Translations under genes and position numbers: made by a program | Source of the DNA: a virus | Virus genome (UHGV): UHGV-0154273 | Strand: one strand, 5' to 3' | DNA: 12,652 bases | In this document: positions 1 to 12,652 of the stretch, piece after piece | Layout: every line of letters starts with the position of its first letter | Numbering within the stretch: the stretch's first letter is position 1 | The notes under the pieces: generated by a model | Told to the model about the DNA's origin: nothing | The model's input: the letters and a program-made list of their open reading frames with translations, nothing else | The model's database searches: none

Positions 1-72
1 TTTTTTTTCAAGCAGAAGACGGCATACGAGATCGTGATGTGACTGGAGTTCAGACGTGTGCTCTTCCGATCT
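1..72. other. Sequencing adapter contamination: poly-T (1-8) followed by Illumina P7 adapter with 6-nt index and TruSeq read-2 primer site
   Basis: Seen directly: CAAGCAGAAGACGGCATACGAGAT (9-32) + CGTGAT (33-38) + GTGACTGGAGTTCAGACGTGTGCTCTTCCGATCT (39-72), the canonical Illumina indexed adapter. Not biological sequence. Confidence 0.95.
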
Positions 73-834
73 GGAATCGGGCGGCGGCTCGTCTCTGACT
101 TTCTGGAAGCGAACCAAGATAAGTTTTCCCGCCAGACGCTGCAAAACTGGTTAACCTGCTTAGGGACGCTGTATGACTTCGCCCGGCGTAAATATGACAA
201 TATCGCCCCTGATAATCCCTTTCACGGCCACAATCTGGAAGCCCGCCAGACGAACGAAAGTTATCAACCTTTTGAACTACACCAGCTACAGGCATTAATA
301 AAAGAGGCAGGTAGCGAGATACGAGACGTAATCATAATCGGTTTGTATTCCGGTATGCGTCTCGACGAAATCGCCAGCATCAAACGAGTTGAGATTATCA
401 AAGTTGAAGGGGTACGCTGCTTCTACGTCAGCAAATCTAAAACTAAAGCGGGTGTAAGGCACGTCCCCATACACTCGCTGTTAATCAGCATCGTTGATAA
501 ATACCTTGCGCAGAACAACGGTGAATACCTGCTCCCCCAATCGAACAAGATTAAACGTGCCGACGGTAAGCGTGGCCCGTGGTACTCGCAGGCATTTACA
601 CGGCTACGCCGTCGCGTGCTGTCAGCGGCTACAGATCGCCAATGCTTCCACTCCCTGCGTGGTCACTTTATTACTTGCTTAGACAGAGCAGGAGTACCAG
701 AACAGCGCATAGGGGCAATAACCGGGCATACCGAACAAAAAGCTAAAACGGAAGCTTTCAGGACATATAGCAAGGGAGCAGGGATGAAAGAACTATGGGA
801 GTATGTGGAGTTGGTCAGTTATCCGTGTTTATAA
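73..834 (+). CDS. int: Tyrosine recombinase / phage-type integrase, 5'-truncated by the adapter junction (C-terminal ~254 aa present)
   Basis: Translation from 73 contains a core-binding-like region and a catalytic domain with conserved Arg (LYSGMRLDEI), HSLRGHF (His-x-x-Arg box) and a C-terminal GHTEQKAKTEAFRTYSKG with the candidate catalytic Tyr. The Met at 58 in the ORF track is encoded by adapter bases and is not a real start. Stop TAA at 832-834. Confidence 0.85.
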   Translation, partial: GIGRRLVSDFLEANQDKFSRQTLQNWLTCLGTLYDFARRKYDNIAPDNPFHGHNLEARQTNESYQPFELHQLQALIKEAGSEIRDVIIIGLYSGMRLDEIASIKRVEIIKVEGVRCFYVSKSKTKAGVRHVPIHSLLISIVDKYLAQNNGEYLLPQSNKIKRADGKRGPWYSQAFTRLRRRVLSAATDRQCFHSLRGHFITCLDRAGVPEQRIGAITGHTEQKAKTEAFRTYSKGAGMKELWEYVELVSYPCL

Positions 835-860
835 AAAAGGCGCTATAGCGCCTTTCTTTT
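833..860. terminator. Bidirectional intrinsic terminator between convergent integrase and 124-aa gene
   Basis: A-run (833-838), perfect palindromic hairpin GGCGCTATAGCGCC (839-852), T-rich run TTTCTTTT (853-860). Sits exactly between two convergent stop codons. Confidence 0.6.
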
Positions 861-1233
861 AAACATCAAAGATGACATCACCATGATACGCGTTAAACTG
901 CGGATTCCGCATGATGGTGATCACTTGCTGAACTACCCACTTTGCACCGATATCAAGTTCATGCTCTATAGCGCACGGTATAGCAATACCAGATTTCTGA
1001 CACTTGATAGTGAAGGAAAATCCCTCATCTTTGCCTAGAATTGTCTGCAAGTGTTGTCCAATGAAATTTGTAAAAATCACTCTCAACTCAGCTAACGTGA
1101 TTGGAGGTTTATTACGCGGATCATTAAGTCTATCAACAGCAAAATGAAATGACATCTTTAGCTTGGCTCTATCTTCTTCCAAGATATCGTTAATATCTGC
1201 AACTAAATCATCAATCTGCTGTTGAGTTATCAT
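859..1233 (-). CDS. Hypothetical protein, 124 aa; downstream gene of an AT-rich two-gene cassette (possible toxin/effector)
   Basis: ORF with ATGA start/stop overlap with the upstream 69-aa gene. Sampled 60-bp blocks are ~37-42% GC, lower than the rest of the element. No recognisable catalytic motif by eye. Confidence 0.55.
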   Translation of the reverse strand: MITQQQIDDLVADINDILEEDRAKLKMSFHFAVDRLNDPRNKPPITLAELRVIFTNFIGQHLQTILGKDEGFSFTIKCQKSGIAIPCAIEHELDIGAKWVVQQVITIMRNPQFNAYHGDVIFDV

Positions 1234-1439
1234 ATGTGTGCAGCCGTGATCTCAGCTAATTTCTTGTTCAACTCTTCATCGTTTGAAGCTGTGATGGTGC
1301 CTACAAATTCAGTGCGTGATAAAGTACCAGCACGCACATCGAATTCGTAGTTGTCAAACGAATCAACGACGACAAACGCCTTGGTTGCTGGGTTAAAAAA
1401 CGATGCACAATTTTGGTTTGTACGCATATCAAAGTTCAT
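1230..1439 (-). CDS. Hypothetical protein, 69 aa; upstream gene of the AT-rich two-gene cassette (possible antitoxin/partner)
   Basis: Strong SD (AGGAGGA) 4-5 nt before ATG at 1439. 4-bp overlap (ATGA) with the 124-aa gene indicates translational coupling. Confidence 0.6.
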   Translation of the reverse strand: MNFDMRTNQNCASFFNPATKAFVVVDSFDNYEFDVRAGTLSRTEFVGTITASNDEELNKKLAEITAAHI

Positions 1440-1536
1440 ATTATCCTCCTACCCCTTCAAGGGAGATGTAGGAACGAAGTATTCTCAAGTTGAAGCTCAG
1501 TTTGGAGACATATTAGGAAACTGTTTTATGCTCAGC

Positions 1537-1555
1537 CTACGCAATCTACGTCAAT
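1537..1555. promoter_or_regulatory. Tandem imperfect direct repeat CTACG(T)CAAT x2 in the upstream region of the 69/124-aa cassette; candidate operator
   Basis: ctacgcaat (1537-1545) followed by ctacgtcaat (1546-1555), ~100 bp upstream of the cassette start codon on the coding (minus) strand side. Confidence 0.25.
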
Positions 1556-1640
1556 CCGTCAAGAATTGTTTTAAATATAGGCAAGTAACAAGGCAGCCAC
1601 AACAACACATAACCGAATGAAAATAAAAGAAATAATCTCA

Positions 1641-2078
1641 TCACGCATGTTGTCTTGGATAAATAACGCCCAACCCCTTGTATTGTCGGCGGTAGGCAGG
1701 TAGCATGCTTAACATGCTACCTCGTGAGAGTCCGCACAAATTTCCCACATAATAACCACCTTCCGCTGCATTGGCCGAACGATGAACCACAGCGCGCACA
1801 CGTCCAGTTCGGTGACAGTGATCCAATACAGCAGACGCGAGGCGTAGCGGCTTAGCTGTCACCGCGCAGCGTCGGTATTGATAATTCCACAGGAAGACAC
1901 GGACAGCGGCCACATCAGCGCGGCGCAACTCCAGCCGTCCTGAACCATTCAACAGGAAGTGATACACATCATCGAACGCAGCAGAATTTTTAATGCGTTC
2001 CGCTAGCGGCATGTTGCCGAGATATTCCAGATAGCCTCGCATCGCTTTTCTTAGTAGTTGGTCTGTCCGTGTAACCAT
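1641..2078 (-). CDS. Hypothetical protein, 145 aa (last gene of long minus-strand operon)
   Basis: ATG at 2078 preceded by GGAGG SD at 8 nt spacing. Stop TGA 1641-1643. No recognisable domain. Confidence 0.6.
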   Translation of the reverse strand: MVTRTDQLLRKAMRGYLEYLGNMPLAERIKNSAAFDDVYHFLLNGSGRLELRRADVAAVRVFLWNYQYRRCAVTAKPLRLASAVLDHCHRTGRVRAVVHRSANAAEGGYYVGNLCGLSRGSMLSMLPAYRRQYKGLGVIYPRQHA

Positions 2079-2350
2079 GATTCAAAGCCTCCACTGTCAG
2101 ATGCAGCCCGTTTGCAGGCTTCGTATTCTTCGCGCTGGCGTTGGCATACCAGAGCATAAAGCTCGGCGGCCATCGCATTAACACGTTCGTCACTGATACC
2201 ATTGCGGCGCATCAGCCCCAGCAGCTTACGAAATTTAGCTTCAAGCTCAGGCTCTCCGGTATCCATTACCCACTGTTTCAGGTCAGCGAGTGCGCCAGTC
2301 ATTGGTGGCGGCTCGATGTACCGCCACCTTAATTTAATCGTGGTTATCAT
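2051..2350 (-). CDS. Hypothetical protein, ~99 aa (start refined relative to ORF track)
   Basis: ORF track start at 2398 is a TTG. In-frame ATG at 2350-2348 is preceded by AGAGGA SD at ~9 nt and gives MITTIKLRW... Overlaps the upstream gene stop by 17 nt and the downstream gene start by 28 nt. Confidence 0.5.
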   Translation of the reverse strand: MITTIKLRWRYIEPPPMTGALADLKQWVMDTGEPELEAKFRKLLGLMRRNGISDERVNAMAAELYALVCQRQREEYEACKRAASDSGGFESWLHGQTNY

Positions 2351-2759
2351 TTTCTTTATCCTCTCTGTAAGCCGGGTGCATTGCCCGGTATTGCTCAATG
2401 GTCAAACCCTCGCTGGCCGCTGCAAACCGTTCCTTTTGCTTACCCGCCAATCGCAAGGCGCTGTCTCTCCAGCAGAGCAGAAAGAAGATGGTCAGCACCT
2501 GCTTACTCAAGCCATCCAGAAGATCACCAAGCCCTTGCTCCAGAAGACAGGCACGCCATGCAGCGGCGTGCTCAGTCATAGCACCTACTATCGGGACAGG
2601 TGCTCCGAGCATTGTCGCAAGCTGACTCATAACACTGTTAGCATCGCCCGGATGCAGCCGTGGAATAGTCATGCGGCCAGCCTGCGCCAACAGTTCAGCG
2701 TACCGCTGGCGGCGCGGGTCATCATCTGCCAGCGCTCTAATCGGCTTTTCATCAGCCAT
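2334..2759 (-). CDS. Hypothetical protein, 141 aa (speculatively a small-terminase-like packaging factor given its HNH neighbour)
   Basis: ATG at 2759 with GGAGG SD 9 nt upstream. Lies immediately downstream of the HNH endonuclease gene. Function not recognisable from sequence. Confidence 0.55.
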   Translation of the reverse strand: MADEKPIRALADDDPRRQRYAELLAQAGRMTIPRLHPGDANSVMSQLATMLGAPVPIVGAMTEHAAAWRACLLEQGLGDLLDGLSKQVLTIFFLLCWRDSALRLAGKQKERFAAASEGLTIEQYRAMHPAYREDKENDNHD

Positions 2760-2777
2760 TAATGGAACCTCCGAGGA

Positions 2778-3305
2778 TTAGGCAGCCTGCAATAAATCGG
2801 CTGGCGTTGACGGATGGTATCTGGCTTTAGCTTTCAGGTACGCAGCACGCGCCGCCGCTTCGGTAGTGAATAAGCCGAGGTGATGGCGAACACCACCAAC
2901 GCGAATGTAAGCCTCCCATCTGCCAGAGCAGGCATGGTGGCTATAACCCTTGGCTTTGCGGTAATTGTGCTGGTTCTCTTGTGGCGTAACCGTGCGGAGA
3001 TTGATAAGGCGGTTGTCATCGCGTACCGCGTTGATATGGTCGATTTGCATCCCGGCAGGGATACCGTCATTAGCAATGATGAAGGCGACACGGTGGGCGT
3101 ATAGCGCATGAGATTTGCCATTGATGCGGACAGATACGCGCCTATATCCGGCGCTGTCCGTTACCGTGTCGGCCAGTTCCCCGGCTTTAGCGTAAATCCG
3201 CTTGTTGGCTCCGATCCGGTCTACTGCATGGAACAGGCGGCCAGTCTTCGCATCGTACCGAAACAAAGAGCGCAACAGCTCCGGGGCATAAGCATCAATA
3301 TTCAT
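2778..3305 (-). CDS. HNH endonuclease with C-terminal AP2-like DNA-binding domain (phage homing/packaging-associated type)
   Basis: HNH_3-type motif HRVAFIIANDGIPAGMQIDHINAVRDDNRLINLRTVTPQENQHN (His, Asn and His spacing typical of HNH). C-terminal GYSHHACSGRWEAYIRVGGVRHHLGLFTTEAAARAAY resembles the AP2 domain commonly fused to phage HNH nucleases. Confidence 0.85.
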   Translation of the reverse strand: MNIDAYAPELLRSLFRYDAKTGRLFHAVDRIGANKRIYAKAGELADTVTDSAGYRRVSVRINGKSHALYAHRVAFIIANDGIPAGMQIDHINAVRDDNRLINLRTVTPQENQHNYRKAKGYSHHACSGRWEAYIRVGGVRHHLGLFTTEAAARAAYLKAKARYHPSTPADLLQAA

Positions 3306-3321
3306 GGCTCGGCCCCTTTTG

Positions 3322-4317
3322 TTATGCAGCTTGTCGGAAATTTATAACGCAGTCAGGGCGGCGCAGCCCAACATTGAACAGGCGATATGAGTCCATCACC
3401 ATTGTCATTTCGCGTTCATCATCCCACTGGCGATTGATAACGCTCTGCGCTTCGACTGTCACAAGTACAGACGCAGGCCGGAACAGCGTCGCCCGTGTCA
3501 GCGCTTCCCCTGCGGTCACATCATAATCAGCGCCCAGTTCATGCGCGGTAATGGCTTCCTGCGGGTAACTGTTCAGCTCAATAACTCGCACCCCAGCGAC
3601 ATAGCCAACGCGACGCCATGCGTAATCATTGCCACTATCCCGGCTGTAACGGACGTTCATCAACTTCTTATGTTCCATCAGGATGCTGAACCAAGCTGGG
3701 TCGATGAGAAGGCACAGCTCCGCCACCGGAATATCTTTTTCAGTTAGGAATCGATTAACAGCAGCTTTAATAGCGTGAACCAGTTCGTTAGCCGCATCCT
3801 CTTCGCTCCCCGTTGTCAGGTCGAGCGAGACAACATTATCCGTCAGCGGGTTAAACGTTGGTTGCAACGTAGGCGGCGGTACAAAGTCAGTCGCTTTGAT
3901 TAGCTGGATAGTGTGCGCTTCGTCGTAGAACTTTGCATGGGCTGTCCCCATGTTGCGGCTCAGCTCTGCGCGAAAGGTGGGCGCTGTCCAGTCGTCTTGA
4001 TAGTCAATCGGGATGCGGATATAGCTCAGCGTATCCACAGAGATAATCAGCTTGTCCGACTTAACGGCGGTAGGCTCCAGCGATTGCCCTGCGGTTCTGC
4101 CCTTCACCTCCAGATCTCCGCTCAGGCGGTCTACACGATACTGATTACTGTTTTTCAGCGGCTTGTATGTGCTCAGCCCCTCGGCGAGAAACACGCTCTT
4201 TGCCTCAAGGCGGGTCTGAACGTCCCGGTCATACGCTTCAATGTGAATGTCGTTGTCAGCATCTACACCGCCCCAGTGCGGGCGGAATTGGTCAGGGGTA
4301 TAAACATTGTCAGTCAT
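3322..4317 (-). CDS. Conserved-looking 331-aa protein of unknown function; possibly structural (capsid-like), unverified
   Basis: Long clean ORF with GGGAG SD 8 nt upstream of ATG at 4317. No nucleotide-binding or nuclease motif seen. Sits between a Q/N-rich scaffold-like protein and the HNH endonuclease, a context typical of head/packaging modules. Product assignment is inference only. Confidence 0.7.
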   Translation of the reverse strand: MTDNVYTPDQFRPHWGGVDADNDIHIEAYDRDVQTRLEAKSVFLAEGLSTYKPLKNSNQYRVDRLSGDLEVKGRTAGQSLEPTAVKSDKLIISVDTLSYIRIPIDYQDDWTAPTFRAELSRNMGTAHAKFYDEAHTIQLIKATDFVPPPTLQPTFNPLTDNVVSLDLTTGSEEDAANELVHAIKAAVNRFLTEKDIPVAELCLLIDPAWFSILMEHKKLMNVRYSRDSGNDYAWRRVGYVAGVRVIELNSYPQEAITAHELGADYDVTAGEALTRATLFRPASVLVTVEAQSVINRQWDDEREMTMVMDSYRLFNVGLRRPDCVINFRQAA

Positions 4318-4385
4318 AGAAATAGCTCCCGCGCCAGCGTTAGCCAGCGCGATTTATGGAAAAGGGGAAAAGAGAATGGGATGAA

Positions 4386-4733
4386 TCAGGCAGCAGCTTT
4401 TTCAGCCGCGATCTCAAGAATCAGGCCGATAAGCGCGAAGGCAGGCCAATGGGGATTAAGCTCGTGCAGGTGCGCAACGCCCCCACCAAAAGCATCGCGC
4501 ATATCAGCACCAGAGATGCCCGCGCGTTTGGCCGCCCGGCGCAGCAATCGCAGCTCGGAGCCGGGAACATACGCCGAGGGCATACGCACGCCGAAGCGTG
4601 AGGCGAGCCGCCGCCAGTGCGCTTCGTCAGCAAAGTCCTGCTTAAGCTGGCTGGCGTTGGCTTTCCAGTGTTCAATCCTCGCGCTACGGGCAGCCCTAGC
4701 CGCTGCCACGTTTTCAGGTGTCAGTAAGGTCAT
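4386..4733 (-). CDS. Hypothetical protein, 115 aa, Arg/Ala-rich with hydrophobic C-terminus
   Basis: ORF in operon orientation. Weak SD. C-terminal WPAFALIGLILEIAAEKAAA could be a membrane or amphipathic segment. Confidence 0.5.
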   Translation of the reverse strand: MTLLTPENVAAARAARSARIEHWKANASQLKQDFADEAHWRRLASRFGVRMPSAYVPGSELRLLRRAAKRAGISGADMRDAFGGGVAHLHELNPHWPAFALIGLILEIAAEKAAA

Positions 4734-4812
4734 TGTCAGATCTCAATGCAAAGTGGGTTTATGTGTGGTGTTTGAGAGGTAATTTCGCGTTTTACAGGTG
4801 CAGGTATACGAA

Positions 4813-4832
4813 TGTACATCTGGCGATGTACA
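4813..4832. promoter_or_regulatory. Inverted repeat TGTACAT-N6-ATGTACA in intergenic gap between the 228-aa and 115-aa genes
   Basis: Perfect 7-bp arms (4813-4819 and 4826-4832) with a 6-nt spacer. No U-run follows on the coding strand, so a binding site or attenuator-like hairpin is more likely than a terminator. Confidence 0.3.
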
Positions 4833-4892
4833 ACGCGATTCAGGCTCTAAAACGTAAGGTTAAGACGTGGGGAAGACAGGACAGGCGATTGC

Positions 4893-5579
4893 TTAACGGC
4901 CAGCGCGTTTGCCAGCGGAGCGCTGCGCAACCAGAGCGCGGTATTGATCGTCGTACTGGCGATGGCCGGGGCCATACCCTGATTGCTGCGCCCACTGCGA
5001 AAGCTGATCATACGCTGCAATAAACTCAGCATGAGACATACCAACAGGTTGCGAGGCAGGCTGGCCGTATGGGTTCCCCTGTGATGGGACATAACCAGTC
5101 GCAGTGCCTGCGACCATACGCTCTTGCAGATAATGAACCGCCCGCTGCATCTGCGCAGGGTCGCCAGACATAACCATCCGTTCAAGGGTTGATTGCGTCC
5201 CGGCGTCGAGCGTGCCAGCGTACTGCAACATCGCGTCAACTGTCCCCTGCCCTAGCTGGCTTTCGACAGACTGGTGAAACTGCCCCATCAGCCCATGAAG
5301 TTCAGGAGTCAACTCAACAGTAGTGCCATCCTGTAATTGCAGCGTGTCGCCCACTTGCGCAGCAACATCAATCTGCTGGTCTTGCTGGTTGGCAAAGTTA
5401 CTTTCGTTCCAGCTTTGATTAATGTTCGCTGGCTGCGTTTTCAGGAAATCAGCATCAGGTGTTGTCTGGTCGAATCTGCTAGCGCCGTTGTCAGCGCCTA
5501 CAGGTGCGGCCATGTACGGCGATTGCTGCGGCGCAGTATCAGCGCCCGAAAGGTACGGATTAACATTCTGGTCAGCCAT
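4893..5579 (-). CDS. Q/N/G-rich low-complexity acidic protein, 228 aa (scaffold-, decoration- or mimic-like; function unknown)
   Basis: ATG at 5579 with AAGAGG SD ~10 nt upstream. Composition strongly biased to Gln, Asn, Gly, Asp and Thr, with predicted disorder. Immediately follows the stop of the upstream HTH gene. Confidence 0.65.
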   Translation of the reverse strand: MADQNVNPYLSGADTAPQQSPYMAAPVGADNGASRFDQTTPDADFLKTQPANINQSWNESNFANQQDQQIDVAAQVGDTLQLQDGTTVELTPELHGLMGQFHQSVESQLGQGTVDAMLQYAGTLDAGTQSTLERMVMSGDPAQMQRAVHYLQERMVAGTATGYVPSQGNPYGQPASQPVGMSHAEFIAAYDQLSQWAQQSGYGPGHRQYDDQYRALVAQRSAGKRAGR

Positions 5580-5581
5580 GA

Positions 5582-5821
5582 TTATGCAACCTCTTGTGAT
5601 GTAACTCGGCGATGTGCCAGTTCAAGTAAAAGCATGTGCGCGTGTACGCATCGGGCAGGAATCATCTTCTGTCCGTGGTACGCTTTGCCGAGATCTTGTC
5701 TGTCGATCTGGTACACATGAGCCAAATCGATTTGACGAAGATTCAAGGCTTCGGCAATGAATTTCAGTTGTTGCCCGCAATCAGCCGCGCGGCGTGGCTC
5801 CATTAAAATAATGGTGCTCAT
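5582..5821 (-). CDS. Putative small HTH (XRE/Cro-like) DNA-binding protein, ~79 aa (start refined)
   Basis: ORF track start at 5863 is a TTG. ATG at 5821 has GAGGA SD at 7-8 nt. Segment LKFIAEALNLRQIDLAHVYQIDRQDLGKAYHG has a helix-turn-helix-like pattern. Confidence 0.5.
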   Translation of the reverse strand: MSTIILMEPRRAADCGQQLKFIAEALNLRQIDLAHVYQIDRQDLGKAYHGQKMIPARCVHAHMLLLELAHRRVTSQEVA

Positions 5822-5835
5822 GAAATAATCCTCAG

Positions 5836-6069
5836 TTAGATAAGGCCATGACGACGCAACCAACGTCGCTCGCCAACGGAGCCACGCGGTCGCTGCCTTG
5901 GATTCTGGTTTGGTGCTTGGCCGGGATCAGTTCGCCCTTCCCCGGACAGGTTCTGTGTCAGCACATCCCAGCCGCGTGATTCAAACGGGGCGTATCCCTC
6001 GCGCTGTTCGTCAAGGTTCACATAGAGATCAGGGTTAACGGCAGGGTGCAGCGGTTCGTTCTCTGCCAT
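5836..6069 (-). CDS. Hypothetical protein, ~77 aa
   Basis: ATG at 6069 overlaps the upstream stop (TGATG). The track's extra N-terminal Met comes from a GTG at 6072. Confidence 0.45.
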   Translation of the reverse strand: MAENEPLHPAVNPDLYVNLDEQREGYAPFESRGWDVLTQNLSGEGRTDPGQAPNQNPRQRPRGSVGERRWLRRHGLI

Positions 6070-6632
6070 CACTTAGCCCCGAATCGCGTGTTAACGTCTT
6101 CCAAAATATCTGGATAAGACCACTTGCTACGCATCAGGCGCAGGACATGAGCAACAGCCTCAGCAGAGATCCCAAGCTCCCCAGCGATCTCGGTTTGTTT
6201 CCAGCCGAAGCGCTCCAGCTTGTGCATCTGATCGAGGTCGGCGCTCAACAGGCGGCGCATCGTCTGCGGTTTCTCAGGCTTTGCTTTAACTGCTTTCGGC
6301 ATCGGGTGGGTGTGGGCGTTGCTAAAGCGGGAATGGACGATAGCCAGCACAGTTTCAGGCCGAATTAGAAAATCGCGTGCAATGGCATGTGCAGTGTCCC
6401 AGTGGCCGCGCCCCGGTTTCCAGCGCTTACGGATGGCGTTGTATTCCTCCAGCGTAATAGCGGCTTCATCCCTCCACTGGTTGGCAAGGTCGGCTACATA
6501 AACGCCGCGCAGCACCGCGTCAACGTCCTCCGGGTCAAATCCGGTTGCAGCGACTACCTCTTCCACATTGCGAAGGTCGCGCTTAACGAGGGTATTGATG
6601 CGCTGGATATCGGTCAGGCTCAGAACTGTCAT
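6069..6632 (-). CDS. HTH-domain protein, 187 aa (C-terminal sigma-70 region-4/LuxR-like helix-turn-helix; regulator or small-terminase-like)
   Basis: C-terminal DLDQMHKLERFGWKQTEIAGELGISAEAVAHVLRLMR matches an HTH pattern. ATG at 6632 overlaps the stop of the upstream small ORF (ATGA). Confidence 0.6.
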   Translation of the reverse strand: MTVLSLTDIQRINTLVKRDLRNVEEVVAATGFDPEDVDAVLRGVYVADLANQWRDEAAITLEEYNAIRKRWKPGRGHWDTAHAIARDFLIRPETVLAIVHSRFSNAHTHPMPKAVKAKPEKPQTMRRLLSADLDQMHKLERFGWKQTEIAGELGISAEAVAHVLRLMRSKWSYPDILEDVNTRFGAK

Positions 6633-6805
6633 AAGGTAAAGTCTCCATCGAAATTGATTTGATCTTCAATCAGCGTGCGAATGAGTAGCAGGCTGGAAGC
6701 GGTGTGTGTTCCCGTCTTGCGGGCGCTTTCATACATGGCTCGTGCTGCGCTCTGATAGTTCGGCGGCAGGGTTGCAAACCATGCTCTAAACTCTGCGGGT
6801 GTCAT
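6629..6805 (-). CDS. Small ORF, 58 aa, not in the supplied ORF track (below its length cutoff)
   Basis: Translated by hand: MTPAEFRAWFATLPPNYQSAARAMYESARKTGTHTASSLLLIRTLIEDQINFDGDFTL. Its ATG (6805-6803) overlaps the TGA of the upstream 68-aa gene and its TGA overlaps the ATG of the 187-aa gene, fitting the coupled operon pattern. Confidence 0.4.
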   Translation of the reverse strand: MTPAEFRAWFATLPPNYQSAARAMYESARKTGTHTASSLLLIRTLIEDQINFDGDFTL

Positions 6806-7008
6806 TGCTCGTCATCCTCAAATACACGGTTAAATGACGTGTCCGGCGCTTCTACGGCATTGGCCTTAAGGAAGTTGACCGCACTGGATAACTCCGCTGC
6901 GGCCATGCGCGACTCACCAGCCTTGTCTTCCTCAAGGCGGCGGATTAGCGCCCCAAGAAGCAAGCCTTTCATTCGCCACGTTTCATTTTCAAACTCGGTT
7001 TTAGTCAT
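6802..7008 (-). CDS. Hypothetical protein, 68 aa
   Basis: ATG at 7008 lies within ATGACTAA, which also contains the stop of the upstream 145-aa gene. Confidence 0.5.
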   Translation of the reverse strand: MTKTEFENETWRMKGLLLGALIRRLEEDKAGESRMAAAELSSAVNFLKANAVEAPDTSFNRVFEDDEQ

Positions 7009-7438
7009 GCGGATTAACTCCTGTCAGCCCCATTACGCGCAGGTACTGGATTACTTCGGCGTGTACTGGTTTTGGTAAAAAGAGGCGACGCTGCACAGAT
7101 TGAAATATCTCGTCGCGCGTCTTGTTGGCAGGGTGAACAGTCCCATTAAAGACCTCACGAGCCATGCGATAGGTCGGCCAAAGACGAGCGCCATCCTCCC
7201 GGCGTCGGAATCTATTCAGCACAGCGGCCAGACATTCCCAAGGCTCACAGTGATTGAGCAGGCAATACCGCTGTAGCGGCGTACCAGCTTGGCGCAAGAT
7301 GGCCGCACGATTAAGAGTCTGGCGGTGGCGCTCAGCTAACCCATCGAAGGAATATCCGTTCAGGGCGAAGGCAAGTTGTGCGGTGACGAGCGCATCCGCA
7401 CGCGTAGCACGACGCTGCGCATGTTCGGTAACAGGCAT
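7001..7438 (-). CDS. Hypothetical protein, 145 aa
   Basis: ATG at 7438 with TGGAG SD ~8 nt upstream. Follows the helicase stop after a 38-nt gap. Confidence 0.6.
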   Translation of the reverse strand: MPVTEHAQRRATRADALVTAQLAFALNGYSFDGLAERHRQTLNRAAILRQAGTPLQRYCLLNHCEPWECLAAVLNRFRRREDGARLWPTYRMAREVFNGTVHPANKTRDEIFQSVQRRLFLPKPVHAEVIQYLRVMGLTGVNPHD

Positions 7439-7476
7439 ATGGATTAACTCCAGAGAATGAGGGGGAGCCTTTCGAC

Positions 7477-9321
7477 TCAGAGGTATTTAGCGATGTACTG
7501 CCAGTTGCAGTTTTCAGGGCGGTAGAAGTAAGCAAGCTCATCAGGCGCAGCATCCAGCGCCAGCGATGACCACAGCAGAAACGCGCGGGCAGGTTGACCA
7601 TCGCGCCCGGCTCGTCCAATCATCTGAATGAGGTCAGGCAGGTCATCAGGAATATATGTAACGATGACGTTGCGAATGTCTGGCACATCAGCCCCCAGCC
7701 CGAAGGCTTTAGTAGCAATCAGAATTGCGCCCGGCGTAGTGGCAAACCACTCAGCGTTTGCGTGGCGTTCTTCGTTACTCAAGTGCATCGTCTTCGAGTG
7801 ATATGGGCGCGCCCGGTCGCCTAAGAGTTTCAGGTACGCCCGCAACGTCTTAAGGTCATTGACGAGAATGAGCGTCTTCTCTTCTTTCGGCAGAGCCTCG
7901 ACCAGACCAATAGCCGCTCGGAAACGTTCGCGGCACTGTCTGACTGTCGTCAACTGGATATTTTCGCGAGCAACATCAGCACGGAATGTTACGTAATCAC
8001 CACGGCAGCCAAGCGACGCCATTAAACTGCGCTCATTTTCGCGTAGCAGCGTAGCCGTAAATACGCAGCGTTGAGCCGAAAGAAAGGCATGTTGTAGCGA
8101 GTGCTGCATGGCCTCGTAAGCGGGTCGGAAATCCCAGTCTTTAACCGTGTGCGCTTCGTCGATGATAAAACGATCAACGCCGTAAGCCATCAGCGCCGCG
8201 AAGACCTGACTCGACAGAACAAGATGCTCAGGTGAAACGACAGCAACACGGAACGCCCCGGCAGCCAGCCCCGCGAGTTGTTGAGCGTTGCGGTGCCTCG
8301 GCAACTTGTCACCGAATGCCACAGCGTGAACGCCAGCATCCCGCAACTGGCGGAGAATCTGGCGCTTTAGGGTATTAGTGGGAACCACGATTACAGACAG
8401 GCCAACGCCAGCGCGGGACTCATAAATCAATGGATAAGCGAAGGCGGCGGTCTTGCCATAACCCGTAGGCAGAACGGCCAGCACATCACTACCACGGGAG
8501 AAGATCGCATCAGCAACAGACAACTGCCCCGGCCTCCACTCCAGCCCATCGGGTGGCAACAGGCTAACGCGTGCGTTTCGGTCACAGCGAACCAGCGGGC
8601 GAAACTCATAAGAGGCTGTATTCAGTGACGGCACAGACGGCGACACTGCCAAGCCGTTTGGGTCACAATGATGATTTGTACTGTTAAATTTATCCTCGGT
8701 AGGTTTCGACTCTCCACACCACAATTGACGAAACTCCGCTGAGTCCCCGTAGCGTTTGAAATCTGAATTGCGCATCGCTTCCAGTTTATTCATGCCCCTG
8801 TTGATGCGGTGTATAGTCTTCTCATCACAAATCAGGAACTCGCGGCAGGCTTTGAGAAAAGCATTCTGCCCGGTTGTCGATGCCGAAACGGCGTGCTCGC
8901 GCGGTTTCAATGCGGCATCATCTACGCGAACACCGGGAAAATCAGGCGGCAGCGGGTCAGCATACCGAGCAGGCTTCTTGTTGAGCCACATTTCTATCTC
9001 AGCGCGTCGGCAATGAATTGCGTCACCGGGCTGGATGACTTGCCGCAACCCCGTGTCAGAGCGCTGTTTTTGCTTCTTCGGTTGAACACCATGCAGCGCT
9101 CGCCATTCCCGCAGGGTCATAGCGGAGCCATCAGCATTGTAATAAAACTCTTCGGTCTTCGTGTTGTATGCCGCCTTAACGGGTTTATGCTTTATCGGGC
9201 ATATCTTGGAACGCCGAATAACAATCCCGTCAGCGACCATTTGCTGTACATCTGCGTTTGCGGTATTGAGCGGGTCAGCGTCGGCAGCCTGCGCAAGCAA
9301 ACGGCGTAGGTTCGTTGGCAT
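7477..9321 (-). CDS. RecQ-family superfamily-2 DNA helicase (DEAH box) with an unrecognised ~280-aa N-terminal domain; likely replication helicase of the element
   Basis: Helicase motifs read directly: RPGQ (Q-motif-like), LPTGYGKTAAF (Walker A/motif I), SPEHL, IIDEAHTVKDWDFRPAY (DEAH motif II followed by the RecQ-typical aromatic-rich loop), FTATL (motif III), MIGRAGRDGQ (motif VI). No RQC/HRDC tail. ATG at 9321 with GGAGA SD 9 nt upstream. Confidence 0.9.
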   Translation of the reverse strand: MPTNLRRLLAQAADADPLNTANADVQQMVADGIVIRRSKICPIKHKPVKAAYNTKTEEFYYNADGSAMTLREWRALHGVQPKKQKQRSDTGLRQVIQPGDAIHCRRAEIEMWLNKKPARYADPLPPDFPGVRVDDAALKPREHAVSASTTGQNAFLKACREFLICDEKTIHRINRGMNKLEAMRNSDFKRYGDSAEFRQLWCGESKPTEDKFNSTNHHCDPNGLAVSPSVPSLNTASYEFRPLVRCDRNARVSLLPPDGLEWRPGQLSVADAIFSRGSDVLAVLPTGYGKTAAFAYPLIYESRAGVGLSVIVVPTNTLKRQILRQLRDAGVHAVAFGDKLPRHRNAQQLAGLAAGAFRVAVVSPEHLVLSSQVFAALMAYGVDRFIIDEAHTVKDWDFRPAYEAMQHSLQHAFLSAQRCVFTATLLRENERSLMASLGCRGDYVTFRADVARENIQLTTVRQCRERFRAAIGLVEALPKEEKTLILVNDLKTLRAYLKLLGDRARPYHSKTMHLSNEERHANAEWFATTPGAILIATKAFGLGADVPDIRNVIVTYIPDDLPDLIQMIGRAGRDGQPARAFLLWSSLALDAAPDELAYFYRPENCNWQYIAKYL

Positions 9322-9436
9322 GGTGAAATCTCCAAAATTAAGGTGAGTTTAGAACGAGGCGCAGGACGGCAGCGCCGAGCTGCCCGTAGAGAGAATTTCA
9401 TGTCAGCAGTGACGTTGAATGTTCTGTCCCTCTTTA

Positions 9437-9462
9437 GTAGTGACTTTCATGTAGGTCACTAC
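9437..9462. promoter_or_regulatory. Perfect 8-bp inverted repeat GTAGTGAC-N10-GTCACTAC upstream of the helicase operon; candidate operator
   Basis: Arms at 9437-9444 and 9455-9462, ~115-140 bp upstream of the helicase start codon on the coding-strand side. Confidence 0.35.
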
Positions 9463-9510
9463 GTATGCACAAGCGAGTGGTGTTCGTTTTGCCACAGTAG
9501 AAACTCTAAT

Positions 9511-9529
9511 TTGATTATTTTTTAATCAA
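9511..9529. promoter_or_regulatory. AT-rich inverted repeat TTGATTA-TTTTT-TAATCAA in helicase-recombinase intergenic region
   Basis: 7-bp arms (9511-9517 and 9523-9529) with a 5-nt T spacer, within an AT-rich stretch that may hold the operon promoter or an origin-like region. Confidence 0.25.
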
Positions 9530-10211
9530 CACCTTTGTAAGCCTTGCCCTGTCTGACTTGATGAATGATTTGCTGATAACTTTCAGTAGGTTTGTTGGGA
9601 TGCTGGGATGTAAGGGGTTATAAGCGGCATTGTGAGTACCATATCCCAATATAGTACCGTACCACTACTCTATCCCCGCCGCGTTGACTGCCTGGCAAGC
9701 ACGGTTGCGTGGAGGGCCGAGCATCACAGCGGGCGAAGGCCGGGAATGAGCCAAAGGCGATGGAGCGGGCTGGAGCATAGCGAGAAGCGCAGCCAGTGTA
9801 GAGCGAAAAGCGATAACACTGATTAGGAGAAGGGATGAAAGGGAAGAACCCTTTTCTGTACATGTATTTTAAATGCAACTTTAAAGGTAAAACGAAGGTG
9901 TTGCCCTGCTTCAAATCTAGCTGAGTGATTGGACAACACAGCCTTTGATCCCTTCCCCTGCCCCATCCCTCGAATTGTTCAGTGATAAATCACATTCACA
10001 ATCTGATCTTGATACTCATCGTCTGGCACGGCTAAAGCCCCGCCATCTCTTCATATCAAGAGCCGCAAGTAATACGGAAATACATTATAAATCATACCAT
10101 TACGAGATTAGGCATAACATAAATATCTGATATCAATACAAAAGCTGTAGGCCATCCATCACCCACAGCCCAGTAACGGCCAGTGCTGGCATCTCATCAG
10201 ACTGTAGGTCA

Positions 10212-10844
10212 TCACTCTGTAACGCTGGCGGACAGCTCACGTTTGATACGGTAGAACGTTGCCCGGCTTATCCCGGCAGCTTTCATGATGTGCTCTGGTT
10301 TATTCCCAACGGTAAGCATAGCGCGGACAGTTTCACGGGCGCTCTCATCCTTAGACTTCCCGTTATATTTCCCCTCGGCTTTGGCACGCTTGATGCCCTG
10401 CGCTTGGCGTGCTCTGCGTGTCTCGTAGTCCACTCGTGCCATCGTAGCGAGGATATCAATCAGCATTGCGTTAACAGCTCTCAGGATGCCCTCTGTAAGC
10501 TCTGACGCCGTATCGTTCAGTAGTTGCCATGAGGTTGGCAGGTCAACGGCAACGATCACCAGTCCCTTATCCTGAATCCTCTGTTTCAGTGTCGCCCATT
10601 CCTTTTGCGTAAGGCGGCTTAGCCTGTCGATGCTCTCGACAAGCAAGACCTCTCCGGCCTGCGCATCATCCAGCAAGCGCATTAGTTCAGGACGCGCCAG
10701 CCTCGCACCGCTGGCGTTCTCGATGTACTCCGCCCGTACAGGCCAGCCCCGATCACTGGCGAACTCTCGCAGCAAGCCCAGCGCCCGGTCTGCGTGTTGC
10801 TCTGATGTACTGGCGCGGCAATAGATAAGCGCATTGTGTGCCAT
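10212..10844 (-). CDS. Serine recombinase of the resolvase/invertase family, 210 aa
   Basis: N-terminal catalytic region with YCRASTSEQ (Ser nucleophile motif), RPELMRLL and LLVESIDRLSR, which parallel Hin/resolvase motifs. C-terminal HTH (KAAGISRATFYRIKREL). ATG at 10844 with G-rich SD. Confidence 0.85.
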   Translation of the reverse strand: MAHNALIYCRASTSEQHADRALGLLREFASDRGWPVRAEYIENASGARLARPELMRLLDDAQAGEVLLVESIDRLSRLTQKEWATLKQRIQDKGLVIVAVDLPTSWQLLNDTASELTEGILRAVNAMLIDILATMARVDYETRRARQAQGIKRAKAEGKYNGKSKDESARETVRAMLTVGNKPEHIMKAAGISRATFYRIKRELSASVTE

Positions 10845-10970
10845 GCTTCCCCCTAAGTCTCAATGAAATATCACAGCAAGACCTATAAGAGATCACATCA
10901 ATAATGTGTAGTCAATAGAGTTTTATAGATAGTCAAATGAGACAGTGTGTCTATGTCTTTATCAGGTATA
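10845..10970. promoter_or_regulatory. Candidate res-like / autoregulatory region upstream of the serine recombinase gene
   Basis: Short repeats directly upstream of the recombinase start: direct repeats TAGTCAAT (10909-10916) and TAGTCAAAT (10930-10938), palindrome AGACA-GTG-TGTCT (10940-10952), repeated ATCACA motifs (10870-10900). By analogy with Tn3-family res sites lying just upstream of tnpR; inference only. Confidence 0.25.
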
Positions 10971-11561
10971 CCCGAAAGAGACTGGCACCGCCCCACAGCA
11001 GCATTCCCCGGCACATCCAGCGAACACAGCGTAGAGCGCACGCAGCAGATCAGCACGGCACCGCCACGATCTCGAAATCACAAAGGCATTGAATCACACA
11101 TTGGAAGCACAGAACGCAGCACAGAGCGATACAGATCGTTTTAGAGGGATGTACAGATACACAGTGAAAGGCAGATGATCGCAGCACTCGTCCCACACGG
11201 TTATTCAGCAACAGCAATCAGCCAGCATCTCGCTCAGTAGCACGCTCCTGTAATGCTTGTCTCGGATGAGCAAAATCTTAGGGTTTCTCAGCGACCCCTG
11301 ACGCGCGGGCACGCACATGCACACGGGGGCGCGGGCGAGCTATAGAGTTGAGGGAGGGGCAACCATAAGCGTGCAATTTTCAAGCTGGGACTTTTAACAG
11401 TGGGATTGTGGGGCTGTTTTGCATTCAGAGAGTGAGGCTGTGGGGGAGCCCTCCTTGAACCAAATAATGCGAAACTGATCATTCTTCCACGTAGCTTAGG
11501 CCACTTTGCATGGATAATTAGCACCAAACACAGCAGCCAGTTTAAGAGAAATGCGCGACAT

Positions 11562-11780
11562 CTACCGTCTGCGTTTACCCCAGCGCTGCATTATGGCTCT
11601 GTGTGCTTCATCCGCTGACCATTCAATAGGTACAACAACGTGTACAGGCATTTCATCGCCAGAGGGGGCACCACGTAAATGGACTCTATACCCTAGTTTA
11701 TTAAGTTCTACCTCGGACATCGGTGATATAACCTCGCCGCTATGGCTGCCGCCAACAAACTCAGCTTTAAAATCCAACAT
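11562..11780 (-). CDS. Hypothetical protein, 72 aa
   Basis: ORF whose ATG (11780-11778) is preceded, 1 nt away, by a 9-nt homopolymeric G tract on the coding strand. The plus-strand ORF 11551-11874 covers the same DNA; the minus strand is preferred because of operon orientation but this is uncertain. Confidence 0.4.
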   Translation of the reverse strand: MLDFKAEFVGGSHSGEVISPMSEVELNKLGYRVHLRGAPSGDEMPVHVVVPIEWSADEAHRAIMQRWGKRRR

Positions 11781-11781
11781 G

Positions 11782-11790
11782 CCCCCCCCC
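11782..11790. repeat. Homopolymeric tract C9 (G9 on coding strand) abutting the start codon of the 72-aa gene
   Basis: Nine consecutive C at 11782-11790. Potential slipped-strand phase-variation site or assembly-error hotspot. Confidence 0.9.
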
Positions 11791-11823
11791 TACACACTAA
11801 CAAGAATCATTGAAGGTGTATCA

Positions 11824-11841
11824 CCCAGCAACTACGCTGGG
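11824..11841. promoter_or_regulatory. Hairpin-forming inverted repeat CCCAGC-N6-GCTGGG between the 153-aa and 72-aa genes
   Basis: 6-bp arms (11824-11829 and 11836-11841). No immediate U-run, so terminator function is uncertain. Confidence 0.25.
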
Positions 11842-11870
11842 CAGAACATCACCTCGGACTATCAATCAAC

Positions 11871-12329
11871 TTAGTATCGCTTTGTGTCTCGTAGTATTAC
11901 AGACAGTAACCACCACCATTGGCGTTTGATCCAACAAACATCACTGAACATCTTGCCGTCAGATGTTTTGATATAAACCCCGCCACGATGATGCACTTTG
12001 TTGTGATGAGCCTTATTTATGAATGGCACGTTCAAGACCATTTCGTCTCGTGCTTTCAATCTTTTTGGCAGCATCGGTGTGATCATGTTCTCGTCCGAAT
12101 ATTCGTCGGATAACATTCTAAGGCGTCCACTGGCTGTTACCACACCGGCTGCACTCAACGTTACATCGTGTGCGCTTATGTTCGAAACGTATATCCTGTC
12201 CTCGTGCTGATCACATCCGAGATAAAGCCTTAGCGATGTTCTGGATTTTAGTAATTGAAATACGGACAAAGCAAAACCCGCCCACGCCGCGATCCCTGTC
12301 CAGTTATCTGTTTGGGTGATCCAAGTCAT
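11871..12329 (-). CDS. Predicted membrane-anchored protein, ~152 aa (N-terminal transmembrane helix), in AT-rich cassette
   Basis: ATG at 12329 overlaps the stop of the upstream 75-aa gene (TGATG); the track's start at 12332 is a TTG. N-terminal hydrophobic segment WTGIAAWAGFALSVFQLL. Sampled blocks ~37-40% GC. Confidence 0.6.
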   Translation of the reverse strand: MTWITQTDNWTGIAAWAGFALSVFQLLKSRTSLRLYLGCDQHEDRIYVSNISAHDVTLSAAGVVTASGRLRMLSDEYSDENMITPMLPKRLKARDEMVLNVPFINKAHHNKVHHRGGVYIKTSDGKMFSDVCWIKRQWWWLLSVILRDTKRY

Positions 12330-12556
12330 CAAGGCTGCATCCCCTTCGACATAAGATACTTAACGATCCCTTCTCGTTGCCTATTACTCAGCTGAAAACA
12401 TTTGTCTAGTTGAGATAAAACCTGCTCGACATCATCTGCCAAGATGGCACTAGCTGCACGAGCGGGGAGATCTCCCTGAATTTTGATAGTGAAATACCCT
12501 GAAGATATTGATAGCTTCAAAAAACAACCTGCTGAGAACTCGTAACTCTCGCTCAT
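12329..12556 (-). CDS. Hypothetical protein, 75 aa, first gene of right-end AT-rich cassette
   Basis: ATG at 12556 with AGAGG SD 7 nt upstream. Its promoter would have to lie beyond the compositional junction at ~12557-12571. Confidence 0.5.
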   Translation of the reverse strand: MSESYEFSAGCFLKLSISSGYFTIKIQGDLPARAASAILADDVEQVLSQLDKCFQLSNRQREGIVKYLMSKGMQP

Positions 12557-12571
12557 AACCGCCTCTGTTGA

Positions 12572-12652
12572 CAGTTCGGCGAGCGCATTGCCGACGGCCG
12601 CACGCGTGTGTACCTGGTCAACACCGGCTGGATCGGCGGCGGCTACGGCGTG
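12572..12652 (+). pseudogene. pckA: Internal fragment of an ATP-dependent phosphoenolpyruvate carboxykinase (PckA)-like gene from a high-GC genome; truncated on both sides
   Basis: In-frame translation QFGERIADGRTRVYLVNTGWIGGGYGV contains the YLVNTGW-GG-YG signature of the PckA kinase region. An in-frame TGA lies immediately upstream (12569-12571). The fragment is ~68% GC with G/C-rich third positions, unlike the rest of the window. Confidence 0.45.

Follow-up and report, generated by a model that had tools for sequence, protein, structure and literature searches.

The window, by which we mean the whole 12,652-nucleotide stretch of UHGV virus genome UHGV-0154273 that was analysed, represents a ~13-kb tRNA-integrated chromosomal island encoding a T7-like capsid protein, a scaffold-like protein, HNH and EndoVII nucleases and a RecQ-like helicase. 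Its minus strand carries a small serine recombinase gene, with a predicted res-type site of ~126 bp (10857-10982, three dyads) directly upstream and a conserved block of the island backbone at its 3' end:

10093..10214, minus strand: conserved backbone block, with two copies of TGACCTACAG, a palindrome (10179-10190) and a terminator hairpin
10132..10171, minus strand: terminator-like hairpin GGGCTGTGGGTGATGGATGGCCTACAGCTT followed by TTGTATTGAT, the sole terminator-like site in 9300-11900
10212..10844, minus strand: small serine recombinase gene, resolvase type, ORF of 210 aa
10857..10893, no strand assigned: predicted res site III, accessory dyad, ATCTCTTATAGG-N13-TTTCATTGAGAC on the minus strand
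10909..10943, no strand assigned: predicted res site II, accessory dyad, GTCTCATTTGAC-N11-CTCTATTGACTA on the minus strand
10910..10915, minus strand: -35-like hexamer TTGACT of the putative recombinase promoter, in the right arm of site II, read from the sequence
10955..10982, no strand assigned: res site I, predicted crossover site, 28-bp imperfect dyad, GTCTCTTTCGGGTA|TACCTGATAAAGAC on the minus strand

The initial annotation described the recombinase gene as stand-alone, and this holds: a gene-free spacer of 890 bp (9322-10211) separates it from the helicase gene, and the next upstream ORF lies ~720 bp away. The predicted product (210 aa) is an intact small serine recombinase, with conserved catalytic residues and a C-terminal helix-turn-helix. 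It matches the Pfam families Resolvase (PF00239; residues 5-160, 6.8e-25) and HTH_7 (residues 171-203, 6.3e-5; marginal, 23.5 bits against a cut-off of 23.8); R10, S12, D73, R74 and R77 show no variation among 21 homologues, S12 being aligned with S10 of gamma-delta. The closest solved structures are Sin/Bin3 (2r0q; 1.8e-12, residues 7-204) and gamma-delta resolvase (3.6e-8), and the full-length alignment to Sin and gamma-delta takes in the DNA-binding domain. Homologues ~69% identical are found on IncFIB and other Enterobacter plasmids, one ~66% identical on a 5.8-kb Erwinia plasmid, and a protein annotated as ParA resolvase shows 40% identity over 207 aa. In the closest relative, LR536431 (99.99% identical), a 554-bp deletion takes away the C-terminus of the recombinase, indicating that the gene is dispensable in the integrated island. 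This difference was also considered as a site-specific deletion and rejected; at its junction lie 5 bp of microhomology, GTTGC, with no relation to the res motif.

Several short direct and inverted repeats upstream of the gene (10845-10970) had been described as resembling res subsites. The repeats are real and beyond chance, but the end proposed for them, 10970, cuts site I in half, the true end being 10982. With a half-site matrix built only from distant relatives (L005-L015), the site I dyad scored 29.8, compared with a mean of 14.0 (sd 2.1, maximum 19.2) for the best dyad in 60 shuffles. There is only one site I in the window; its axis (10968/10969) lies within GGTATACC (10965-10972), a crossover core conserved better than any other part of the site, and the half-site motif of the res is RTCTCWWTWGGG. 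Site I is conserved in all 15 aligned relatives. Exact copies of GGTATACC are found at -144..-93 in 32 of 80 loci of the family, the background being 0.0066 per kb, and among proteobacterial relatives ~50% identical the core persists ~115-140 nt ahead of the gene, the outer half-site motif differing from clade to clade.

The site III axis is ~93 bp (9 helical turns) from that of site I, and the site stops just ahead of the ribosome-binding site; with a score of 13.3 (spacer 13) it ranks second only to site I among the independent dyads of the window. The site II axis is ~42 bp (4 turns) from site I; the window-type site II is degenerate, the inner GGG having gone from both arms and the score being below threshold, so its assignment rests on alignment with the counterpart GTCTCAATAGGGT-N10-CCCTATTGAC in L008-L015 and L084. 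Half-site matches in relatives fall at the conserved offsets -14/+2, +25/+47 and +74/+99: those of site II at +25 (forward) and +47 (reverse), and those of site III at +73..75 (forward, 15 of 17 loci) and +98..100 (reverse, 7 loci). The three-dyad layout is kept upstream of every relative examined, in islands and on an IncFIB plasmid; the relatives with three dyads at these fixed offsets encode proteins 62-98% identical and occupy unrelated contexts, plasmid pDSMZ13645 among them. We conclude that the upstream region constitutes a predicted res-type site, in which 12-bp motifs make up three dyads. GAGAC precedes the start codon in the majority of the 15 aligned upstream regions. L008-L011 carry TTGACA-16 nt-TATCAT at the position of the -35-like hexamer; the -10 element of the window is weak, and a consensus promoter scan called no promoter in the region upstream of the recombinase.

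An invertible switch had also been proposed for this locus; since no second site I was found and no inversions were seen, this proposal is not supported. Such a switch would call for a recombinase of the Hin/Gin/Pin type flipping a neighbouring segment, a reading suggested by the best PHROGs family (phrog_125, 3e-40, named 'DNA invertase'), by the label 'DNA invertase Pin-like' that some database sources give to homologues, and by an identical domain order. Against these labels, site I is single in the window, in each of ten island loci of 20-31 kb (scores 24-30, next best dyad at most 9) and across 15 kb of chromosome on each side in a near-identical relative. There were no inverted segments between the window and L003-L007, and in ~150 E. 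coli genomes the matches fell at single places and on one strand, with no inversion. A hix-like dyad modelled on the hix/gix consensus gave no match with 3 mismatches allowed. Moreover, a crossover site with two adjoining accessory dyads is the arrangement of a resolvase, and we regard an invertase as extremely improbable here.

A small serine recombinase is found in the same slot of every examined island of this kind, and the recombinases in this slot are of three kinds, mutually only 26-35% identical, two of them unrelated to the window type and occupying the slot in other islands. Judged from this distribution, the recombinase gene is a core part of the island. The res sits exactly where the conserved core gives way to variable, tRNA-proximal cargo. 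This cargo includes an XcyI-type restriction-modification pair in L087, a DUF3800 gene in L002, Mrr_cat in L092 and, in the window, ORFs of unknown function; PADLOC gave no match for the three cargo ORFs, and a search of the whole window against Rfam (E <= 1) returned a chance match only. The occurrence of the same res-recombinase cassette on plasmids and its sharp borders in the island would also be expected if the recombinase were the leftover of a Tn3-family transposon or of a plasmid fragment, with no role for the island. No transposase and no terminal inverted repeats are annotated within the island, though, and both the ORF and the site are intact; furthermore, the slot is filled in all the islands examined by three unrelated recombinases, which argues for selection on function. 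A leftover is consequently very unlikely.

The repeats flanking the 3' end of the gene had been proposed as a possible mark of a resolution site, an invertible switch or a module junction. The sequence features on which this relied were recovered: the direct repeat (CTGTAGGCCATC at 10145-10156, CTGTAGGTCATC at 10202-10213), the overlap of the second copy with the stop codon (TCA at 10212-14 on the plus strand, TGA on the minus) and the palindrome GCCAGTGCTGGC at 10179-10190. Repeat pairs matching at 11 of 12 positions within 100 bp number 3 in the window versus 1.4 +/- 1.2 in shuffles, so their presence as such is unremarkable. Both copies, 57 nt apart, are retained in 10 of 12 related islands, and for this reason the repeat is, on comparative evidence, genuinely conserved as an element, independently of the window recombinase. 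It belongs to the backbone block, in which TGACCTACAG stands at 10202-10211 and 10145-10154; the block follows recombinases of three unrelated types in 10 of 12 islands and is absent from L003 and L004, and the point where it starts bounds the recombinase cassette. The repeats as recombinase sites did not survive this comparison: they lie behind a 26%-identical recombinase in L087 and are missing behind 94-97%-identical ones (L003, L004), a dissociation from recombinase type in both directions, and they have no match to the half-site matrix. The terminator-like hairpin (10171..10142, minus strand) is located 40-70 nt past the stop codon of the recombinase; it also forms in the minimum-energy fold, with repeat copy 1 (10145-10156) as its 3' arm. 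The local fold is unexceptional (z = -1.7). Two further candidates were rejected: an anti-terminator pairing of repeat copy 1 with CTGTGGGT showed no covariation, five islands having a G to A change in that copy without a compensating change; and a third copy of TGACCTACA (9449-9458), considered as a regulatory iteron, is not conserved in other islands.

The suggestion that the locus marks a junction between modules was borne out at two places: the flanks reassort around site I, and the repeat copy at the stop codon is the exact joint of unrelated cassettes to the conserved backbone. The clearest junction is in island L089, whose distal side is 92-95% identical to type-A islands up to ...GTCTCGTTTGGGTA, while its proximal side, from ...GTCTCGTTTGGGTA on, is 92% identical to the type-C island L092. 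The parental halves of its hybrid site I meet in a 3-4 bp interval at the dyad axis, and the parental sites differ by one base in the presumed 2-bp overlap. The hybrid site of L089 carries the signature of a res x res crossover between heterologous sites and, as a single event, gives indirect evidence of strand exchange at the axis of site I. Its native partner was found via a protein search and contig look-ups; DNA searches of plasmids and E. coli genomes gave nothing useful. Together with the three dyad subsites at conserved offsets, this natural hybrid upholds the resolution-site reading of the upstream repeats. The in silico demonstration covers the protein class, the architecture of the site, its conservation and uniqueness, and the junction that a natural crossover has left at the axis of site I.

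The same junctions raise the question of whether the system mainly serves to exchange modules, through res x res recombination, among islands and plasmids, with multimer resolution secondary. The position of the res exactly at the border of core and cargo, the free reassortment of distal and proximal flanks and the L089 hybrid point in this direction, as does the window itself, which combines a type-A right half with a different left half and a distal flank like that of L007, L086 and L091. No island with the native left half of the window was found, and its own junction can therefore be narrowed down only to the left half of site I as far as the axis. L089 alone, however, maps unambiguously to the axis; type-B islands diverge from one another ~27-33 nt outside it, at the outer edge of the conserved site, as expected from ordinary cargo turnover up to a constrained site. 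Accessory-site resolvases strongly disfavour intermolecular reactions (PMC12217951; PMC5698047), so that intermolecular res events are expected as rare by-products. Exchange as the main role is, in our judgement, improbable.

The preferred reading, which we consider likely, is that of a self-contained resolution cassette, in which a serine resolvase gene directly follows its cognate res and which would serve to resolve multimers. Binding, topology, autoregulation and this multimer-resolving role are features that we infer, the mechanism being drawn by analogy with Tn3/gamma-delta, RK2 ParA-MRS and the SGI1 resolution system. Resolvase dimers would bind all three dyads; two directly repeated res on one supercoiled molecule would synapse via sites II and III; Ser12 would cleave all four strands at the central dinucleotide of site I (10968/10969), and rotation of the half-sites would delete the DNA between the res sites. 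An integrated single-copy island would undergo no reaction, because it offers no partner site. The substrate would be an island dimer, multimer, tandem array or cointegrate, arising for example after excision and replication, and monomers would be the product; the cassette most likely cuts island multimers to single copies. On this reading, rare crossovers with a foreign res at the same point have also passed the cargo arm and the recombinase cassette from island to island. If the helper were a T7-like phage packaging concatemers, the resolvase could work against packaging.

Sites II and III extend over the -35-like hexamer and the stretch just ahead of the ribosome-binding site. Recombinase bound there would be likely to repress its own promoter, an autoregulation proposed by analogy with Tn3-type res. 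This overlap, and the dispensability of the gene in LR536431, would also suit a protein acting mainly as a DNA-binding regulator of island genes, its recombination activity being vestigial. That account is highly improbable, given that the catalytic residues are all invariant in the family, that no part of the site is better conserved than the GGTATACC crossover core and that a natural crossover product exists.

As a resolution cassette, the system in the window is a familiar, textbook one and not surprising in itself. Its value lies in the exact coordinates of a predicted res with three subsites and of the crossover point within it, and in the large clade of proteobacterial resolvases with a common GGTATACC crossover core, which is apparently uncharacterised. 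The resolution function would furthermore be a conserved core of a poorly described island family with an Autographiviridae-like capsid protein, in other members of which two unrelated recombinases replace the window-type resolvase; no published description of a family of capsid-encoding tRNA-integrated islands was found in the literature searched. The one clean natural heterologous res x res crossover may help to explain the reshuffling of the cargo adjoining the site. A bolder proposal, which we offer as a tentative and on balance doubtful one, is that in these satellite-like islands site I serves as the swap point at which the defence/cargo arm and the recombinase cassette are exchanged with other islands and with res-bearing plasmids, the enzyme also supplying the monomeric circles needed to fill small T7-like capsids that the island itself encodes. 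If true, the resolvase would double as an engine of the modular evolution of a phage satellite.

Tn3-like res sites are described as ~120 bp long, located upstream of the gene and made of three dyads of 12-bp motifs, with sites I and II 4-7 turns apart and the central 2 bp cleaved (PMC12217951); the geometry of the window site fits this description in its size, position, dyads and spacing. Further likenesses to Tn3/gamma-delta are a small serine recombinase with a C-terminal helix-turn-helix and its res directly upstream, a 28-bp site I with a central A/T-rich crossover, a site II ~6 bp longer, and sites overlapping the promoter (PMC9943657, PMC12217951). The differences are the distant sequence relationship (E 3.6e-8), the half-site motif RTCTCWWTWGGG, the ~42 bp between the axes of sites I and II, and site III, which is the shortest in Tn3 and the longest in the window (37 bp). 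Compared with a Tn3-family transposon, the island has no transposase annotated in RefSeq relatives and no transposon ends, and the neighbours of the cassette are the helicase and cargo ORFs.

The Hin/Gin/Pin/Cin invertases share the superfamily and the domain order with the window protein, whose homologues are often labelled 'Pin-like'; in contrast to these systems, the locus lacks an inverted pair of crossover sites, an invertible segment and any hix-like sequence, and it has accessory dyads in place of an enhancer. Sin, from staphylococcal plasmids, is the best solved-structure match and of similar length (~209 aa). In the Sin res, direct repeats make up the only accessory site, and there is an HU/IHF site in addition (PMC9943657), which lies between sites I and II. 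The accessory half-sites of the window are inverted and form two dyads, different from a Sin-type arrangement. ParA of RK2/RP4 is a small serine recombinase of ~220 aa which acts at the MRS site (~106 bp) in plasmid multimer resolution (PMC5698047). The 40% identity of the annotated ParA resolvase and the closer homologues on plasmids liken the window protein to this system; unlike parA, its gene stands alone and not in a parCBA operon, and the DNA upstream of the annotated parA gene in L085 has no GGTATACC core. SGI1 is conjugatively mobilised, whereas the window island encodes a capsid and has the look of a phage satellite. Both carry a Tn3-like res-resolvase module in an integrative, helper-dependent island, beside a helicase and adjoining variable cargo, and in SGI1 the resolvase and its res have been shown to remove island multimers (PMC12217951).

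The recombinase, an open reading frame of 210 aa, matches Pfam Resolvase (6.8e-25, residues 5-160) and HTH_7 (6.3e-5, marginally under cut-off); the NCBIfam search gave no equivalog at its cut-off. In an alignment of 21 homologues (49-82% identical) R10, S12, D73, R74 and R77 are invariant, and S12 is aligned to S10, the catalytic serine of gamma-delta resolvase. Among relatives of solved structure, Sin/Bin3 match best (1.8e-12), followed by the gamma-delta/Tn3 resolvases; a protein with the annotation ParA resolvase is 40% identical across 207 aa. The family is large (3970 matches): Enterobacter plasmids of 47-300 kb carry homologues at about 69% identity, and a 5.8-kb Erwinia plasmid has one at about 66%. 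The gene and its flanking features are as follows (slash in site I, dyad axis):

10212-10844, - strand: recombinase ORF, 210 aa
10955-10982: site I (crossover site), 28-bp dyad RTCTCnnTnGGGTA/TACCnnAnnnnnnn, centred on GGTATACC, axis 10968/10969
10909-10943: site II (accessory), dyad GTCTCAATAGGGT-N10/11-CCCTATTGAC, from the alignment
10857-10893: site III (accessory), dyad with its GAGAC end just before the ribosome-binding site, from the alignment
10202-10213: 3' repeat, CTGTAGGTCATC, overlapping the recombinase stop codon
10179-10190: palindrome GCCAGTGCTGGC
10145-10156: 3' repeat, CTGTAGGCCATC
10171..10142, - strand: terminator-like hairpin, then TTGTATTGAT

The gene is a separate transcription unit: the helicase gene (7477-9321) lies 890 bp downstream, the nearest upstream ORF is about 720 bp off, and the sole terminator-like hairpin in 9300-11900 is found just past the stop codon. 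The initial annotation had called the recombinase stand-alone, which agrees with these gaps and the hairpin, and its statements on both repeat copies, the stop-codon overlap and the palindrome were all correct.

Alignment of the sequence preceding the start codon, for the window and 14 relatives (62-98% identical in protein; from E. coli, Enterobacter, Kosakonia, Rosenbergiella, Raoultella, Buttiauxella, Citrobacter and Pantoea) revealed three conserved blocks, corresponding to sites I, II and III. The window-type site II is without the inner GGG in both arms, so its assignment in this type rests on the alignment; its right arm contains a -35-like hexamer, TTGAC(T/A). Using a half-site matrix derived from the database loci L005-L015 only (the window and close kin left out), the arms of site I were the top two matches in the whole window (16.3 and 13.5 bits), and the dyad scored 29.8, compared to 14.0 +/- 2.1 (maximum 19.2) for the best shuffled dyad in 60 shuffles. 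The half-site offsets from the axis were fixed over 17 loci (site I, -14 and +2; site II, +25 and +47; site III, +73..75 and +98..100), placing the axes of sites II and III about 42 bp (4 turns) and 93 bp (9 turns) from that of site I. The same three-dyad arrangement precedes a homologue on the IncFIB plasmid pDSMZ13645; relatives at about 50% identity, spread over many Proteobacteria and including some on Psychrobacter plasmids, keep the GGTATACC core at the same distance and vary in the outer motif by clade (e.g. GAACC or GATAC). Of 80 loci, 32 have an exact GGTATACC at -144..-93; its frequency in the rest of these loci is 0.0066 per kb. The upstream repeats described initially as res-like are thus three conserved dyads, with site I far above shuffled sequence; what may be new is a clade with the GGTATACC core and a long site III. 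A 45-nt element (CCCGGCTTGAAAAATTGCACGCTTATGGTTGCGCCTCCCTCRAC, - strand, 11347-11393), some 370 nt from site I on the distal side, shows about 90% conservation in every capsid island; the sequence around it is otherwise unrelated. A 72-aa ORF further on (11562-11780, - strand) has a G-rich ribosome-binding region ahead, gave no match in the PADLOC search and is without annotation in the RefSeq relative L001.

The cassette lies in an island of about 13 kb, integrated beside a tRNA gene (tRNA-Gly or tRNA-Leu). Of 5426 complete E. coli genomes, about 150 carry it, and this island type is also present in Enterobacter and Kosakonia. A tyrosine integrase is located at one end, and the genes other than the integrase (EndoVII-like nuclease, HNH nuclease, major head protein, scaffold-like protein, RecQ-like helicase) are on the - strand. 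The major head protein matches phrog_267 (2.8e-67) and is 57% identical to its counterpart in Bonnellvirus (Autographiviridae, T7-like podophages); the island ORFs scanned included no recognisable portal or terminase. The whole island (window 1-12652) looks like an undescribed phage-satellite type, and is a more unusual object than the cassette itself; our literature search found no paper on this family, and a 2025 preprint deals in general terms with satellite-like defence islands at the same tRNA-Leu/ahr locus (PMC12458937). The helicase matches the PADLOC model PDLC02858 'DpdF' over the full profile (2.7e-268) with no other Dpd genes near it; the model may have been built from the island helicase family, and false Dpd calls are possible. 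In E. coli 5735 (L086), WP_021563832 and the DUF4145 protein WP_021563833 are present on both flanks of the island (1-410 / 18932-19423 and 1023-1664 / 20036-20130), which suggests insertion into, or duplication of, another element.

In every island of the type examined, a small serine recombinase gene separates the helicase-side spacer from a variable cargo lying toward the tRNA (unknown ORFs in the window, DUF3800 in L002, an XcyI-type restriction-modification pair in L087, Mrr_cat in L092). Three kinds occupy this slot:

207-210 aa: window, L002-L005, L007, L086, L091
191 aa, 26% identical to the window protein: L087, L090
187 aa, 34% identical to the window protein: L089, L092

The upstream repeats differ by kind, each carrying its own. 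The replacement of unrelated genes by one another at a fixed position argues that recombinase function in the slot is under selection, and the occurrence of the GGTATACC-core clade as a core module of a capsid-encoding satellite-like island may be new. Related cassettes also occur in a second, smaller kind of element (L093, 8001-12847; L094, 8001-15963; L083, the 5.8-kb Erwinia plasmid), where the recombinase is followed by a sigma-70 region 4 / HTH_38-like gene; L093 and L094 also encode an HNH nuclease, a tyrosine integrase and sometimes Abi genes.

The repeats at the 3' end had been proposed as a possible recombinase site. From the stop codon, the block reads on the - strand TGA TGACCTACAG ... 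GCCAGCACTGGC ... GGGCTGTGGGTGATGGATGGCCTACAGC TTTTGTATT, and the 3' arm of the terminator-like hairpin is repeat copy 2 (- strand order; 10145-10156). Such a direct repeat is not unusual within the window. Both copies are present in 10 of 12 islands, always 57 nt apart, following all three recombinase kinds; the stop codon abuts copy 1 directly in six islands, and in the type-B islands L005, L007 and L086 the repeats lie 175-265 nt past it. L003 and L004, with recombinases 94-97% identical to that of the window, lack them. The block is therefore part of the island backbone rather than of the recombinase, and copy 1, at the stop codon, marks the joint between the exchangeable cassette and the backbone. 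Between recombinase and helicase, a noncoding block of about 440 nt (9653-10092) is 85-95% conserved in six islands, above the adjoining 1756-9656 block (81-86% DNA identity in L003 and L004); it contains a hairpin (about 10007-10061) with three compensatory base-pair changes, had no Rfam match, and may act as an sRNA, an origin or a packaging signal. A 26-nt palindrome (GTAGTGACTTTCA/TGTAGGTCACTAC, 9437-9462), located some 120 nt upstream of where the helicase starts, includes a third TGACCTACA-like copy, the motif not being conserved at that position in other islands.

Islands were then centred on the site I axis and compared over 120 nt on each side (unrelated-sequence baseline about 60%). 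The recombinase side of the window is 98% identical to the type-A islands L002-L004; its cargo side is unrelated to them (57-60%) and reaches 72-75% with L007, L086 and L091. The cargo side of L089 is 92-95% identical to L002-L004, including the entire left half-site CTGTCTCGTTTGGGTA, and its recombinase side is unrelated to these and 92% identical to the type-C island L092. In a four-way alignment the parent switch falls between GGGTA and CACTCAATGGATAC. Comparison with the native sites of the 187-aa kind (...TTGAGTA/CACAAC... in L093 and L094; ...GAGCG/TACTTAATGGATAC in L092) narrows the exchange interval to 3-4 bp at the dyad axis, where the presumed 2-bp overlaps of the parents, AT versus AC, differ by one base. 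This one clear case has the pattern that a serine recombinase would produce by crossing over two res sites that differ. The type-B islands part from one another at the conserved site's edge, 27-33 nt outward of the axis, a pattern that ordinary cargo turnover would give. The module junction suggested initially thus holds in that flanks reassort at site I and a cassette-backbone border coincides with a repeat copy; the window's own junction is only bracketed, lying somewhere from the final lineage-specific base in the left half-site up to the axis.

An invertible switch, also proposed initially, is not supported: there is a single site I-type dyad (score 24-30; next best at most 9.6) in each of 7 scanned loci encoding a 207-210 aa recombinase; entirely collinear homology between the window and L003-L007; and matches in single places, on one strand, in the approximately 150 E. 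coli genomes. The scanned loci were 20-31 kb long and included L001, the E. coli relative at 99.99% identity, with 15 kb of chromosome on both sides; L087 and L090, with the 191-aa kind, have no site I-type dyad, and the hybrid dyad of L089 scores 14.9. The only length variant is a 554-bp deletion in NZ_LR536431.1 (L001; window 9704-10257), fusing the recombinase to the spacer with loss of its last ~15 codons; its GTTGC microhomology junction led us to reject a site-specific event.

We consider it quite probable that the locus is a resolution cassette; its specific role in the island life cycle is put forward with less assurance, as somewhat favoured. The resolvase would bind all three dyads in each of two res sites present as direct repeats on a single molecule, and strand exchange at 10968/10969 would delete the intervening DNA, converting island multimers, tandem arrays or cointegrates to monomers; it would also repress its own promoter. 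The class of the protein, the architecture of the site, its conservation and uniqueness, and the crossover junction are in silico results.

The upstream site fits Tn3-like res as described in the literature (PMC12217951; PMC9943657), which precedes its gene, is about 120 bp long and comprises three dyads built of 12-bp motifs; 4-7 turns separate its sites I and II, and site I is cleaved at its central 2 bp. It is unlike the res of Sin, whose single accessory site is a direct repeat (PMC9943657). In SGI1, a restored resolution system removes island multimers (PMC12217951), and it is by analogy with Tn3/gamma-delta, RK2 ParA-MRS (PMC5698047) and SGI1 that we infer binding, topology, autoregulation and a multimer-resolving role for the window cassette.
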